From contig JACOZV010000002.1 of NCBI GenBank assembly GCA_016181175.1, positions 64,115 to 128,114 of the forward strand: 64,000 nucleotides of DNA. Direction: 5' to 3'. Shown here one piece after another: positions 9,478 through 54,044 of the stretch. The position numbers and the translations under genes are program-made. Each line of letters begins with the position of its first letter. Positions within the stretch are counted from its first letter, which is position 1. This DNA comes from Candidatus Yanofskybacteria bacterium (lineage in GTDB: Bacteria; Patescibacteriota; Minisyncoccia; 2-02-FULL-40-12; IGHO2-01-FULL-4-A). Below the pieces are notes generated by a model that did no database searches, had not been told where the DNA came from, and saw only the letters and a list, made by a program, of their open reading frames with translations.

Positions 9478-9552
9478 TGGGGGGATCTAGGGGATTCGAA
9501 CCCCTGACCCTTCTGCCACAGAGAAGTGTGTTGCCATTACACCAAGATCCCC
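9478..9552 (-). tRNA. tRNA-His(GTG)
   Basis: G-1, acceptor GGGATCT/AGATCCC, anticodon arm CTTCT-CTGTGGC-AGAAG, TTCGAAT loop, C73, encoded CCA. Confidence 0.92.
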
Positions 9553-10031
9553 ATGAATTTCTTATGTTCGACTTTGTCGTGGTGGATAAGATAGTGACAA
9601 TTATGGCAAAGCCAAACCAAGTTTTCTATTTTATTGTTCATCCTATTCTCGTCTAAATGATGCACTGCTAAAATTCTCTTATCTTTTAACTTACAAAATT
9701 TACACGCCTGCTTGGCATGACTTCTTAAGAGAATATGTCTGTATCTATGCAGGCCGCCTTTCCAAAATGGATGTTTTTCTCCAGAGAAAAAAACATTTCT
9801 CCATATAGTCTGACATCTCTTTGTACAGAAAAATTTACCACTTTTCGAATGCCTTAATTCTTTAGGCATTTTCCATGCTAATTTATTGCATGTGGAACAA
9901 TTTATAAATTTACCGCGACGTTGTCCTATCGTTTGGCATTTACGCGAACAGTATTTCCCGCCGCCAATTTTTAAGTGATATGGTTTGATATAGGATTTAT
10001 TCTTACAAATGTGGCATGTGATGGTGGGCAT
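9537..10031 (-). CDS. HNH endonuclease with N-terminal Zn-binding repeats; stop codon lies inside tRNA-His
   Basis: CxxC...YCSRKC and CxxC...FCTKRC, GEKHPFWKGG, HHLDENRMNNKIENLVWLCHNCH. Confidence 0.85.
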   Translation of the reverse strand: MPTITCHICKNKSYIKPYHLKIGGGKYCSRKCQTIGQRRGKFINCSTCNKLAWKMPKELRHSKSGKFFCTKRCQTIWRNVFFSGEKHPFWKGGLHRYRHILLRSHAKQACKFCKLKDKRILAVHHLDENRMNNKIENLVWLCHNCHYLIHHDKVEHKKFMGILV

Positions 10032-10038
10032 TAACTAA

Positions 10039-10067
10039 ATTATATCTGTTTCTGCCTATTGTTGCAA
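10039..10067 (-). promoter_or_regulatory. promoter of the HNH/tRNA-His unit (leaderless)
   Basis: TTGCAA-17 bp-TATAAT, 7 nt before the ATG. Confidence 0.65.
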
Positions 10068-10092
10068 GACTGCTCTGTGGATTAAATCCTCT

Positions 10093-10116
10093 CTCTACCA
10101 TTGAGCTACGGCCACC
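10093..10116 (-). pseudogene. tRNA 5'-half relic (His-like)
   Basis: GGTGGCCG TA GCTC AATGGTA GAG = G-1, acceptor 5' strand and D-arm, then the structure is lost; His identity is inferred from the typical GGTGGC start. Confidence 0.65.
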
Positions 10117-10188: not shown

Positions 10189-10260
10189 CCGCCCGTAGTT
10201 CAACGGACAGAACGAGGGACTTCTAATCCCTAAATCGAGGTTCGATTCCTCGCGGGCGGA
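10189..10260 (+). tRNA. tRNA-Arg(TCT)
   Basis: Acceptor CCGCCCG/CGGGCGG; anticodon arm AGGGA-CTTCTAA-TCCCT; TTCGATT loop. Confidence 0.93.
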
Positions 10261-10263
10261 CAT

Positions 10264-10476
10264 ATGAAAATTTGGAAATGGCTTTTATATATTACTAATA
10301 ACGAGGAAAAATCACGGCACGAAGAGCTTTTTGATGTTGCCTTTTTTAGTCTCAATACCATTGCGGTTGTTTTTGGAATTGTTATGTTTATAATCCACAA
10401 CGAACCACAGTGGATACCGATTCTTGTTATTGAGTATACTTGGGCATTAGATAGTATGAGACACAATAGGCCATAA
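10264..10476 (+). CDS. small membrane protein
   Basis: 70 aa with hydrophobic core, between two tRNAs. Confidence 0.6.
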   Translation: MKIWKWLLYITNNEEKSRHEELFDVAFFSLNTIAVVFGIVMFIIHNEPQWIPILVIEYTWALDSMRHNRP

Positions 10477-10516: not shown

Positions 10517-10587
10517 CGGGCCGTGGTGTAACGGTAGCACGAGACGTTTGGGACGTTTTAGCCCGAGTTCGAATCTCGGCGGCCCGA
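10517..10587 (+). tRNA. tRNA-Pro(TGG)
   Basis: Acceptor CGGGCCG/CGGCCCG; anticodon arm AGACG-TTTGGGA-CGTTT; TTCGAAT loop. Confidence 0.92.
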
Positions 10588-10598
10588 CAGTTAAAATC

Positions 10599-10634
10599 GC
10601 GGGTATCGTATAGTGGCAGTACGGCAGTTTTCCA
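10599..10634 (+). pseudogene. tRNA-Gly(TCC) 5'-half relic
   Basis: GCGGGTA TC GTAT AGTGGCA GTAC G GCAGT TT TCC A, then breaks off after position 37; no 3' half. Confidence 0.75.
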
Positions 10635-10657
10635 TATGTTTTGGTAATTAATTTGCT

Positions 10658-10704
10658 ATATAAAACAAAAGGCCTCCGGGGTATGGAGACCTTTTGTTTT
10701 ATAT
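10658..10704. terminator. bidirectional terminator between convergent tRNA units
   Basis: ATATAAAACAAAAGG.CTCC ... GGAG.CCTTTTGTTTTATAT. Confidence 0.7.
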
Positions 10705-10705
10705 G

Positions 10706-10776
10706 AGCGGGTAACGGGATTTGCACCCGTGTCTACTCCTTGGAAGGGAGTCATACTGCTGCTATACTATACCCGC
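10706..10776 (-). tRNA. tRNA-Gly(TCC), atypical D-loop
   Basis: Acceptor GCGGGTA/TACCCGC; anticodon arm ACTCC-CTTCCAA-GGAGT; T-arm ACGGG-TGCAAAT-CCCGT; U73; D-loop lacks GG. Confidence 0.8.
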
Positions 10777-10780
10777 AATT

Positions 10781-11452
10781 TTATTGCGATAACACACCAT
10801 ATATCCAACCCTTTATTCTCCTAAATAGTTTTACCCCAAAAGCAATATTTCCATTTGCCTTTATAGTAACATGAGCAGTACCAAAAGGCAGCTTTTTTCT
10901 TTTATAGATTTTTTTATTTTCTCTGCGATCTATTTGTACTTTTTGGAAGTTTTTATCAGACAAACCAGTTTCTTTTTTCCAGAATTTGATTGATTCATTA
11001 ATGTTGTTATCAGGGTATAAATGAAGTCTTATGGCAAAGTTATCATCTGGCAAGCCGATTATTTCTTTAAACCATCTTATGGAGAGCCTTATTACTGCTG
11101 GATCAGCATTGATTACTCGAATAATATCATTATTTTTAGTACCCTCTCCTATATAAATGCCAAGTCCTAAAAGCCACAAGTCTCGGTTGCTAAGTTTTCC
11201 GATTTCTTTAGCGCCAGCTTCAAGTAATTCCTTAGTTTCTTGTACTTTACGATTGTGGCTTTTTTCGGCTGATTTCATGGGCCCGCGGTATATTCTATCT
11301 AAAACTTCTATGTTAGGAGTAAACTTACGATCTCTAAACCAGTCACTTAGAGTACTTTTTGATATTCCTATACTTGCCGAGATCATGTTATAGGAGTATC
11401 CCCTATCTCTTAGTTTTGTTGCCTGATTTTTAAGTTTATTAATTCTGGTCAT
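10781..11452 (-). CDS. HTH plus LAGLIDADG-like putative homing endonuclease
   Basis: HTH LRDRGYSYNMIS..IGISKSTLSDW; helix LLGLGIYIGEG; ATG 11452 is 6 nt after TATAAT; ends 4 nt before tRNA-Gly. Confidence 0.6.
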   Translation of the reverse strand: MTRINKLKNQATKLRDRGYSYNMISASIGISKSTLSDWFRDRKFTPNIEVLDRIYRGPMKSAEKSHNRKVQETKELLEAGAKEIGKLSNRDLWLLGLGIYIGEGTKNNDIIRVINADPAVIRLSIRWFKEIIGLPDDNFAIRLHLYPDNNINESIKFWKKETGLSDKNFQKVQIDRRENKKIYKRKKLPFGTAHVTIKANGNIAFGVKLFRRIKGWIYGVLSQ

Positions 11453-11570
11453 AGCCTCATTATACCAGACTATAGTCACGGGTTCAATAAAATCGGAATT
11501 AAAAAGTGTGGCAGTTGTAGAATTTATCTGCATCTAATTTTCCCTTCAATCAAGCAGTTTATTCTCATTG

Positions 11571-11651
11571 CCCCCTACCCGCTCCCCCAGTCCAACTGGG
11601 ACCCCCTCACCCACAGTTGGAATGGGGAGTCGAGTTTGACTCGCCTCCCCA
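11571..11651. other. GC-rich double-hairpin element with strong G/C strand skew
   Basis: TCCAACTG/CAGTTGGA and TGGGGAG..CGAGT/ACTCG..CTCCCCA stems in an AT-rich spacer. Confidence 0.5.
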
Positions 11652-11696
11652 ACTATATAATTATATTAAGAATAAAAAGTCTGACTTTTTATTCTT

Positions 11697-11885
11697 ATGA
11701 ATAAGTATTACGTATACACATTGCTCTCACTTAAAGATAGGCGATTTTATGTTGGTTTCACCGCCAACCTAAAAAACCGTCTTCAGCAACACGCTCACCA
11801 AGATGCCAAAGCCAGAGAAGTGTTTCTCAAAAGTGGTTTTGGCAGAAACCAAATGAAGCAGGCATTAAAACAAACACTTTTGTAG
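11697..11885 (+). pseudogene. small GIY-YIG nuclease with probable internal deletion
   Basis: YYVYTL..FYVGFTANLKNRLQQH joined directly to DAKAREVFLKSGFGR; the usual central segment appears missing. Confidence 0.65.
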
Positions 11886-11943
11886 CCTATTTCCTATACT
11901 CGCTCCACAATAAAAAAAAGCTGATTTTTATTAATCAGCCTAT

Positions 11944-12270
11944 CTACTGCTTTGAGTTTTTACGACTCTTCGTCATCTGAAGTAATAACTTTAAATCACT
12001 AGTCGGCTCTTTTTTATACATTGAAAGCAACTCATTTCTTGTAATAATTTCTGCTTTATCACGAATAAGGTCATTGATGTGTCGACGAGTATACCAATCA
12101 ACGCCGTTTTCTCTTATGAACTTTTTGTCACCTGGACAACTATTGAGTGCATAAAAACCTGGCTTTTCGAGAAAACTCTCGTGCCTAACTACAATACCGA
12201 GCACTCTTCCGAAAACACAAACAATATCCCCACGCTTTAGTTTTGTTTGTGAAGTAATCAGTGTTGCCAC
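11944..12270 (-). CDS. hypothetical protein
   Basis: 108 aa; SD GAGGGAG; followed by a hairpin and T-tract. Confidence 0.6.
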   Translation of the reverse strand: MATLITSQTKLKRGDIVCVFGRVLGIVVRHESFLEKPGFYALNSCPGDKKFIRENGVDWYTRRHINDLIRDKAEIITRNELLSMYKKEPTSDLKLLLQMTKSRKNSKQ

Positions 12271-12474
12271 AAAAACTCCCTCATATGCATAGAACTGACT
12301 CCCAATTTAACTCATTTGAATTATCTCTGCAAGTAATTAATCCTAACTACTTCTATTGCCAAGCTAGGTATATAAAATAAGTCTGTAGCTGATTCCCAAT
12401 AGGTTCTCCCTCGGGAATACTCGGGACAGGTAACGTCATCTACTAACCCGCTCCAAGAAAAATAAAACCACTTC

Positions 12475-52816: not shown

Positions 52817-52963
52817 TCTGGGCCTCCAATTGTGAAAAAACACTAACTAAATCATTATACGGTAATCTCCTAGATTTGTAAATAGCCATGCCATCAAATT
52901 TTTTATTTTTTGTTCCTGGAAATATAAGCGAGCTATAGTGCCTTTTGTAAATCAGCCAAGCGA

Positions 52964-53175
52964 AACCCCTGTCTAAGAAATCATTCATGGCAGGCTTTGG
53001 TAACAAATAAGGCGAGCGAGCAGCGGAAAGCCGAGACCGCAAACCCGTAAGCCCGGCCCTAAAGCGGGGTTAGTTTGCGCTTGCGCAAACTAAGGTTGAG
53101 GAAAGCTCGGAAGGATTCCGCGTTGCGAGCGAGTTATATTTGTCAAAGCCGAATGTTGATTTCGTGATAGGGGTT
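52964..53175. mobile_element. 212-bp foldback (MITE/REPIN-like) element
   Basis: Nested IRs AACCCCT..GAAATCA/TGATTTC..AGGGGTT and GGCTTTG..ACAAATA/TATTTGTCAAAGCC; internal TTAGTTTGCGC/GCGCAAACTAA. Confidence 0.6.
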
Positions 53176-53183
53176 GAGCGGGA

Positions 53184-54044
53184 TTAGATTTTTCCCACGG
53201 ACCCGAAGAGTTCCAGATATTTTTTAATCATTCTCTTCATCTCTTCATAAGATGGCTTGAGGTATTTATAGGGCGTGGTTTGGGTGGGTTCTTTTTCAAG
53301 TTCTTCATGCAGGGTGTCACGATAAGCTACGCGAAGTTCAGTGTTAATATGAACATTGGCGATGCCATTTTGTATCGCCATTTTTATTTCTTCAACAGGT
53401 AAACCAGAGGCGCCATGCAATACCAGCGGTACTTCTGGAACGACTTGAGTAATTTTTTTAAGATGTTCTATGTCCAAATGCTCTTCCTGCTCTGTAACAA
53501 TGCCGTGAATATTGCCAAAAACTACGGCTAGACGATCAACTCCAGTAAGTGTAACAAAATCCTGCGCTTGTTCGGGTTGTGTATAATCGAAAGGACTTAT
53601 TTCAATCGCGGTTTGTACTTCAGAGCTTCCCCGCAGATAGCCAAGCTCGCCCTCCACCGCAATTTCGGAATTGATTGATTTGGCGTATTCTTTAACTTTT
53701 TTAGTAAGCTCTATGTTTTCTTCAAGTTTCAGCTTGGATGCATCTATTAATACCGTATCGTAACCACTGTCAATGGCGGCTTTGGCAGTTTCCCAGCTTT
53801 TATGATGGTCAGAGTTCAAAAAAACCGCGTGGCCTTCTTTCTGATACGATTCCACTAAAGCCACAGCCTGTTCTCGTCCAATAAAATCAGCTTCGCCCTC
53901 TGAAGTTCCGACCATAATCGGTGATTTCATTTCCGTCGCTGCCTCAACAAACGCCTTAAGCTGATCCGCCGTGGAAAAATTAAAATGCCCCAGCGCCCAC
54001 TGGTCTGCCATTGCTTCTTGAAAATATTGTTTTAGAGTCTTCAT
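53184..54044 (-). CDS. fba: class II fructose-bisphosphate aldolase
   Basis: LNSDH, VEGELG, GNIHG, LVLHGASG, HINTE. Confidence 0.92.
   Translation of the reverse strand: MKTLKQYFQEAMADQWALGHFNFSTADQLKAFVEAATEMKSPIMVGTSEGEADFIGREQAVALVESYQKEGHAVFLNSDHHKSWETAKAAIDSGYDTVLIDASKLKLEENIELTKKVKEYAKSINSEIAVEGELGYLRGSSEVQTAIEISPFDYTQPEQAQDFVTLTGVDRLAVVFGNIHGIVTEQEEHLDIEHLKKITQVVPEVPLVLHGASGLPVEEIKMAIQNGIANVHINTELRVAYRDTLHEELEKEPTQTTPYKYLKPSYEEMKRMIKKYLELFGSVGKI

Follow-up and report, generated by a model that had tools for sequence, protein, structure and literature searches.

The window, a stretch of 64,000 nucleotides (G000:C6:64115-128114) within the 776-kb, 7-contig genome (G000) of an ultra-small groundwater bacterium, Candidatus Yanofskybacteria, contains a cassette that is likely selfish, disrupting an essential tRNA gene while itself providing the only copy that works. 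The resident tRNA-Gly(TCC) gene is split and a complete tRNA-Gly(TCC) lies within the insert, bearing out the tRNA-replacing cassette that a sequence-only reading of this DNA had proposed, and the insertion is real and recent. The cassette is interpreted, with a probability of about 0.75, as a free-standing homing-type element, the protein of which would cut the resident gene near its anticodon while its own tRNA would rescue the cell.

All parts of the cassette were found where that reading had placed them (Table 1), including the Gly half that stops after position 37. The cassette carries a promoter, a gene for an HTH-LAGLIDADG-like protein, tRNA-Gly(TCC) and a terminator, with only one ORF inside it. 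This ORF codes for 223 aa from an ATG at 11452 and its stop codon lies 4 nt before the tRNA; a start at 11533, given as an extension in the ORF list, was ruled out, as the conserved promoter indicates 11452. The arms of the terminator hairpin are 20 nt long and 95% complementary (z-scores of -7.1 and -10.5 on the two strands), while the longest inverted repeat of the 3-kb region has arms at 10592-10634 and 10741-10783 that are 77% complementary. No integrase was present among the ORFs listed for 5-16 kb of the window, no direct repeat flanks the insert and no intron family was detected in an Rfam scan of 8-14 kb. A split or intron-containing tRNA was also considered and ruled out, given that 22 nt are missing between the halves and that no intron model matches.

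Table 1. Features at and around the tRNA-Gly(TCC) cassette, in window coordinates.
Feature	Position	Strand	Basis or remark
tRNA-Arg(TCT)	10189-10261	+	Resident cluster; tRNA calling and Rfam
70-aa ORF between Arg and Pro	10264-10476	+	Synteny marker, 80% identical in same-genus G005
tRNA-Pro(TGG)	10517-10588	+	Resident; Gly(TCC) normally comes next
Left scar: 5' half of resident tRNA-Gly(TCC), positions 1-37	10599-10634	+	36/36 against intact G005 and G056 alleles
Inserted cassette, 936 nt, inverted relative to resident gene	10635-11570	-	Comparison with G005 allele
Predicted bidirectional intrinsic terminator: hairpin with A/T tails on both sides	10658-10704	.	Folding z-scores
Complete replacement tRNA-Gly(TCC)	10705-10776	-	tRNA calling; Rfam 62.9 bits
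223-aa gene: N-terminal HTH, long helix (residues 48-84), single LAGLIDADG-like domain	10781-11452	-	
LAGLIDADG-like domain, residues 86-223	10784-11197	-	Profile and predicted-structure comparison
HTH domain, residues 1-54	11291-11452	-	Pfam HTH_3; structural matches for residues 1-44
Predicted leaderless promoter	11453-11488	-	-35 TTGAAC 11482-11487, 17 nt, extended -10 11459-11464, 6 nt, ATG
Right scar: T-stem 3' strand and acceptor 3' strand of resident gene or of downstream duplicate	11571-11584	+	

The resident gene can be recognized by comparison with a genome of the same genus (G005). G005, whose RNase Y is 94% identical to that of the window host, has the gene order His, Arg, small ORF, Pro, Gly(TCC), HU, with the Gly gene intact and the family gene absent from the locus. 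The first 36 nt of this syntenic allele (L141) are exactly those of 10599-10634, and the G056 allele (L142) also agrees at 36/36; these two are the only ones among 149 distinct Gly(TCC) alleles to match the relic in full. The relic ends with position 37, immediately 3' of the anticodon. At 11571-11584 the window repeats the final 14 bases of the G005 allele, a string which occurs once in the genome and which adds a 3' end of the relic to the earlier description. G005 duplicates its Gly 3' end approximately 175 nt downstream, and the window bases past the right scar fit this duplicate slightly better. The right scar is either the end of the resident gene, with 22 nt absent from the 3' anticodon stem to the T-loop, or its 3'-end duplicate, with more lost. 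Whichever origin it has, 10635-11570 is, on the same sequence comparison, an opposite-orientation insert in the anticodon loop. The 5' halves of relic and replacement tRNA had been described as nearly identical; this holds as 20/24 for the first 24 positions, and over all 36 they differ at 9, of which 4 fall within that first stretch, another 4 in the anticodon stem and the last at position 32. The likeness exceeds chance, given the full match of the relic to two Gly(TCC) alleles.

Present and absent alleles thus occur at an orthologous site. G006, also of the same genus, has no family gene at this place, like G005, while both the window and L193, a close host (RNase Y 92%), are occupied; the L193 cassette is another one, which shares the site but runs in direct orientation and follows a 5' relic of 22 nt. 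With respect to the junctions, one contig of sample X1, which may be the source sample, spans 10605-11750 without a difference and another (10535-10634) joins Pro to the relic. In X2 and X3, two further samples of the same study, the left junction lies in contigs covering 10605-10783 and 10605-10787, which hold 30 bases on the tRNA side, one below the bridging threshold, and the right junction is bridged by contigs covering 10754-12429 (X2) and 11451-11643 (X3). In a second study the gene is covered by short low-depth pieces and neither junction is bridged. Intact alleles of other organisms in the sequencing samples diverge from the window at exactly 10634.

The tRNA-Gly(TCC) of the cassette is the sole TCC decoder among the 45 tRNA genes called in the genome, where GGA accounts for 2597 of 11444 Gly codons (327 long ORFs); by standard wobble rules the replacement tRNA is therefore needed. 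It has A18 with G55 in place of G18 with U55. A18 and G55 occur together in 13 of the 149 distinct alleles and G55 with G18 in none, a pattern of pairing which indicates selection on tRNA structure. No description of an A18-G55 pair was found in the literature searched. The same paired change is present in the tRNA-Tyr of the genome (G000:C4:8759-8843), which has an AGCAG D-loop and a TGCAAA T-loop. Other features of the tRNA complement of G000 include a tRNA-Ile with the anticodon TAT (G000:C3:56776-56850), unusual in bacteria and the tRNA to which one branch of the family is tied in relatives, and a region (G000:C3:311916-312189) in which tRNA-Lys(TTT) is accompanied by a perfect 50-nt repeat of its 3' portion and by a detached Lys 5' fragment. 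tRNA-Asn is absent from the 45 called genes, and a targeted look also found none (a relaxed ARAGORN search allowing introns returned noise only); it may be unassembled or interrupted.

For the altered anticodon stem of the replacement tRNA, which had been described as swapped, a deliberate exchange that confers immunity finds no support. The mean pairwise difference per site in this stem is 0.64 for Gly(TCC) versus 0.46-0.64 in six other tRNA types, with stem pairs kept in 725 of 735 cases. The same stems are found in alleles linked and unlinked to the gene, the unlinked L138 being identical to the linked L060 and L083. Hypervariability of the stem as a Gly(TCC)-specific arms race was accordingly rejected, since other tRNAs vary about equally, and no sequence feature was found that separates linked from unlinked Gly(TCC) alleles. 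The G55 T-loop variant was likewise rejected as a general mark of immunity (8/129 linked and 5/26 unlinked rows) and is a candidate mark for the sub-branch of the window only; T55 is kept in 111 of the 129 linked tRNAs. The nearest alleles to the replacement include unlinked ones, and G006 has an A18/G55 allele without the gene, which may be the leftover of an earlier invasion or simple allele diversity. In this genome the motif GTTCRA is absent from the replacement tRNA and was removed from the resident gene by the deletion; since it is gone from both copies, the T-loop is as good an immunity candidate as the stem, against which stands the T55 kept by most linked tRNAs.

The cassette protein possesses an HTH_3 domain at residues 15-54 (Pfam, E 7.8e-6), a domain also found in 86 of 109 aligned members of its family at E<=0.1. 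There are 416 homologues at E<=0.001, and a broader profile extends to 4,194 clusters (50% identity) at E<=1e-10. Some longer members of 380-576 aa have extra HTH repeats or several matched stretches (P0128, P0132, P0137-P0139, P0195, P0265). No LAGLIDADG family was among the top 25 Pfam families for the 109 members, with HTH models alone matching; NCBIfam gave no match for the protein and a single-sequence PDB search no LAGLIDADG match. The family profile, on the other hand, matches the second motif of I-DmoI (E 0.0076), aligning Glu103 with E117 and Lys106 with K120. A motif helix (residues 89-102) leads into an invariant G102-E103-G104; Glu103 (codon 11144-11146) and Asn115 are invariant in the 109 members and Lys106 is at least 90% conserved. 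Residues E117 and K120 of I-DmoI are catalytic and both are absent from WhiA, according to PMC3384342.

AlphaFold predicts an HTH, a 37-residue helix and an alpha/beta domain, with a pLDDT of 88 for the whole protein and 93 for the domain alone. When the structure of the domain was compared using VIA, 10 of the top 11 rows were LAGLIDADG proteins with Z 5.0-7.0, the whole model giving a similar result. The match to I-DmoI has a Z of 6.9 (rmsd 2.7 over 87 residues), and an extra helix is inserted in the domain. The best Z is 7.0, tied with WhiA (Z 6.9), and values of Z below 8 can reflect a common arrangement. Foldseek returned nothing at E<=0.001 with either model and ranked OmpA-like domains first, ahead of I-DmoI (rank 10, E 0.053); these were not accepted as relatives, having an rmsd of 6-8. 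The top cluster of the ESM Atlas (score 0.97) bears an automatic LAGLIDADG name, which is a lead only. The suspicion that the protein would turn out to have a LAGLIDADG-like fold is thereby upheld at modest Z, and the protein is probably a divergent LAGLIDADG member without a match in any curated family. The Gly(TCC) clade is under purifying selection, with dN/dS at 0.15 in the closest pair and at approximately 0.04-0.08 in 7 pairs whose dS is nearly saturated.

The leaderless start proposed earlier is supported by the homologues, 75 of 128 having the start codon 6 nt past a -10 box, with a TTGAAC-like -35. YGAAC occurs within 75 nt upstream of 89 of 128 Gly-branch genes. In control windows the figure is 17 of 113 and at ORF starts across the genome 54 of 599, while other catalytic branches have it in 29 of 49 versus 6 of 48. 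Among 24 leaderless-like starts in the genome, expected to include that of the cassette gene, just 1 has such a -35. On the opposite strand YGAAC is the tRNA T-loop motif, and this antisense T-loop motif is a candidate binding site in the family promoters. The resemblance to a tRNA extends further: 11465-11488, read on the other strand, agrees in register at 17 of 24 positions with positions 35-59 of the resident allele; the spacers of 67 promoters fit a tRNA profile better than all 2000 shuffles, with the qualification that the promoters are related and the absolute score is negative; and the -35 box of L017 is itself the T-loop in a complete tRNA 3' relic. From these similarities the promoter may be the descendant of a captured tRNA half, an operator for the HTH, or both. 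The SegB site contains a conserved T-arm motif (PMC2330249) and I-TevI represses its own gene (PMC3384342).

A search of genome contigs with the single protein returned nothing and the homologue loci were obtained by an alignment-based search; those with names are mostly Patescibacteria, a few have other labels, and the closest is a Yanofskybacteria bin. Gly(TCC) follows the gene directly on the same strand at 79 of the 80 best among 170 genome loci, and likewise at 78 of the 80 best among 471 metagenome loci. In the merged set, 129 of 132 distinct close homologues are linked to Gly(TCC), agreeing with the adjacent tRNA that was anticipated; of the three unlinked genes two (L002, L182) run into a contig edge and the third (L179) is preceded by its tRNA on the opposite strand. 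There is one tRNA per branch in a tree of 81 proteins, namely Gly(TCC), Gly(GCC) twice, Ile(TAT), Lys(CTT), Met(CAT), Gln(TTG) and, upstream, Glu(TTC). The wider family was counted for 68 proteins at 67 loci of relatives, out of approximately 157 matches. Proteins with the EG motif adjoin a same-strand tRNA in 38 of 45 cases, as does one E-to-K variant in a Gly(GCC) branch, whereas of the 22 proteins of the YWRER-type branch without the catalytic Glu (L087, L088, L095, L096 and 18 more loci) none do, one lying at a contig end. tRNA linkage is tied to the catalytic residue across the branches of the family, although this amounts to one evolutionary contrast, as kin are not independent. The motif GTTCR is found at the start codon in 13 of 23 non-EG rows, and the YWRER branch looks like a domesticated regulator, a candidate for an independent WhiA-style case. 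G000 itself has three paralogues on C3, these being a YWRER-type gene with no adjacent tRNA (52874-53584), a gene directly behind tRNA-Glu(TTC) (82052-82813) and a gene whose stop runs into tRNA-Arg(CCT) (G000:C3:84228-84887). No relative was found among 50,697 phage records. Distant relatives do lie inside tRNA clusters on five viral contigs of 60-260 kb (L241-L245), possibly a vehicle for other branches.

The Gly(TCC) branch was found in 3 of 60 relatives, in none of 25 other genomes of the same family and in 5 of 151 genomes of the class, all of these counts involving incomplete genomes. The native order of Pro then Gly is present in 28 of 132 cassettes, 3 are inverted with respect to Pro, and in G057 the copy of the gene is frameshifted beside an intact tRNA. 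The protein tree of the Gly clade, a quick version which omits L002, L039, L040, L060 and L228 due to frame problems or truncation, broadly follows host groups, which suggests spread mostly among related lineages and long residence. The native gene order and the host-like tree also fit long vertical residence. The native order would also suit a domesticated, non-cutting WhiA-like regulator of the neighbouring tRNA, moved by ordinary gene transfer, whose insertion broke the redundant resident gene by chance, and to this can be added the tie of WhiA for top structural match, the HTH, the strong purifying selection and the promoter motif common to the family. Such a regulator is nevertheless unlikely here. 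WhiA lacks the catalytic acid (PMC3384342), yet Glu103 is invariant in the 109 members, and the Glu-less branch is the very one without a tRNA; the clade is also sparse among the genomes of the class, and repeated landings in the same anticodon loop, in both orientations, are unexpected by chance.

These landings are documented by scars, which were searched for with a profile scan of 260-nt flanks using distant regions as controls (a simple pattern scan of relatives proved too loose for counting Gly halves). On the opposite strand, 9 of 128 upstream regions held a 3' half and 4 of 125 downstream regions a 5' half; on the same strand, 3 of 128 upstream regions held a 5' half. The scar classes unexpected under insertion numbered 1, 0 and 0 and the distant controls gave 4 weak matches in 196 regions. 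Same-strand (9) and opposite-strand (5) 3' pieces downstream resemble 3'-end duplicates and were excluded from the scar counts; the 3' half of L164 was missed by the profile scan and found by nhmmer. The same-anticodon relics that were expected beside homologues do exist, at about 16 of 132 loci, of which several share an origin, two are barely above threshold and some are perhaps ordinary 3'-end duplicates, but most loci have no scar. The longest 5' halves end at positions 36 (L044) and 37 (window) and the longest 3' halves begin at 33 (L164, L002) and 36 (L017). No scar half crosses the anticodon loop, which brackets the break to positions 33-37 and is consistent with a staggered cut at the anticodon. 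Of 132 loci only the one in the window has both halves, and together with the intact allele of the congener it offers an assay a defined substrate, along with predictions of where the cut falls and of which allele resists it.

Quite unlikely is a break or inversion made by another tRNA-end element, such as a GIY-YIG mini-element or an integrase, with the LAGLIDADG-like gene merely hitch-hiking. The GIY-YIG fragment at 11697-11885 and the tRNA 3'-end duplicates that are also present at loci without the gene speak for it, but between its two scars the insert has nothing besides gene, tRNA, promoter and terminator, no integrase is listed among the ORFs of 5-16 kb, and the other scarred loci have just this gene family in common. 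As for the fragment itself, it forms part of 11590-11885 (+), in which two strong hairpins (z -4.6) past the right scar are followed by 62 aa of GIY-YIG sequence (E 3.6e-8), the whole probably being a decayed tRNA-end mini-element. A further 26-nt stretch with the tRNA-end-like ACCCGCTCCA lies downstream of the sigma-factor gene (12431-12456) and has a 96% match near the Gly gene of G056.

Very unlikely, too, is an attack at the RNA level, in which an anticodon nuclease or binder would act on tRNA-Gly with the linked tRNA as antidote, making the cassette an addiction module and not a homing element. The gene lies 4 nt from its tRNA in the same orientation, and each pairing involves one isoacceptor, as would suit such a module; the scars, however, are in DNA and centred on the anticodon loop, the nearest folds are DNA endonucleases, and linked and unlinked tRNAs have the anticodon loop in common. 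A local inverted duplication or assembly artefact, suggested by the half and full genes forming an inverted repeat around a strong hairpin, is already largely refuted and scarcely credible, the relic being identical to alleles of other genomes and 9/36 off the neighbouring copy, its 3' end unique and its junctions present in contigs of several samples.

For the homing-type element the following course of events is proposed. The cassette would enter on foreign DNA and be transcribed from its own leaderless promoter, after which a homodimer of the protein would make a staggered double-strand break within positions 33-37. If the flanks of donor and recipient match, recombinational repair would swap the cassette in without leaving a scar, as is usually seen; with mismatched flanks, the cassette would be joined into the break in either orientation and with some trimming, as in the window. 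From then on only the cassette tRNA would read GGA and it would be kept, while the nuclease gene may later decay. More speculatively, the HTH might bind GTTCRA, the T-loop motif, thereby directing the enzyme to tRNA genes and allowing it to repress its own promoter. A much wider scheme can be imagined, possible but doubtful as a whole, in which the family would consist of modular isoacceptor-specific tRNA-gene nucleases whose HTH docks on the universal T-loop motif, whose 37-residue helix serves as a ruler and whose LAGLIDADG dimer reads and cuts the anticodon arm. The promoter would be a captured antisense tRNA 3' half that doubles as operator, cutting and replacement by thousands of such proteins would drive the horizontal turnover of single-copy tRNA alleles across Patescibacteria, and one branch would have been domesticated as a non-cutting regulator.

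A second cassette lies nearby at 9478-10116 (-), with a His-like 5' relic, a gene for a 164-aa HNH protein and a complete tRNA-His, and looks like a direct-orientation version of the same strategy. The parallel drawn between the two in the sequence-only reading is plausible: the intact, syntenic His genes of G005 and G002 start with the sequence of this relic, and the HNH protein had no match in the 20 loci tested, G005 and G002 included.

The cassette would represent a route by which a homing-type gene can enter an essential single-copy gene without an intron, namely by destroying it and bringing a replacement. If confirmed, this would help to explain the mosaic tRNA alleles of Patescibacteria and the family, unannotated and comprising about 4,200 clusters, would supply compact natural nucleases as a panel in which every member targets a single tRNA gene. 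In the literature searched, outside which most subscription journals lay, no description of the family or of a chromosomal cassette of nuclease and replacement tRNA was found.

Integrative elements insert in tRNA genes and carry a fragment that restores them. The cassette is like these in its insertion in the anticodon loop and in the preservation of tRNA function, and differs in having no integrase and no direct att repeats, in its use of either orientation and in the deletions at its junctions; it also brings a whole foreign allele where integrative elements bring a restoring 3' piece. Closer parallels are SegB of phages T4 and T6 and other free-standing homing endonucleases with their intronless homing (PMC2330249, PMC2988022, PMC13096335), where a stand-alone nuclease gene likewise sits among tRNA genes and spreads with the neighbouring tRNAs. 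For such elements, resistance of the home allele to its own enzyme and an inheritance bias in crosses are characteristic. The T-arm motif of the SegB site (PMC2330249) is the T-loop motif enriched in the promoters of the cassette family. SegB is a GIY-YIG enzyme of phages that tolerates many tRNAs, while the cassette family is LAGLIDADG-like, resides on bacterial chromosomes and has one isoacceptor per branch; the SegB-type cut is usually far from the gene, whereas the cassette lands in the gene that is broken and replaces it. WhiA (DUF199) also joins a LAGLIDADG fold to an HTH, but there the HTH is C-terminal and the catalytic residues are absent (PMC3384342), while in the cassette protein the HTH is N-terminal and E103 invariant. 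The closest LAGLIDADG homing endonuclease by both profile and fold is I-DmoI, and single-motif homodimers are known in I-CreI, I-MsoI and I-CeuI. Enzymes of this kind build their active site from two motifs and cut both strands at a specific site, leaving short 3' overhangs. With the LAGLIDADG enzymes the protein has in common the motif helix ending in an acidic residue and Gly, the alpha/beta core and a Lys at the position of I-DmoI K120; it differs in lying outside an intron or intein, in its N-terminal HTH on a 37-residue helix and in a Z of at most 7. Finally, in intron and intein elements the essential gene is rescued by splicing, whereas here the rescue would come from a full replacement copy within the cassette.
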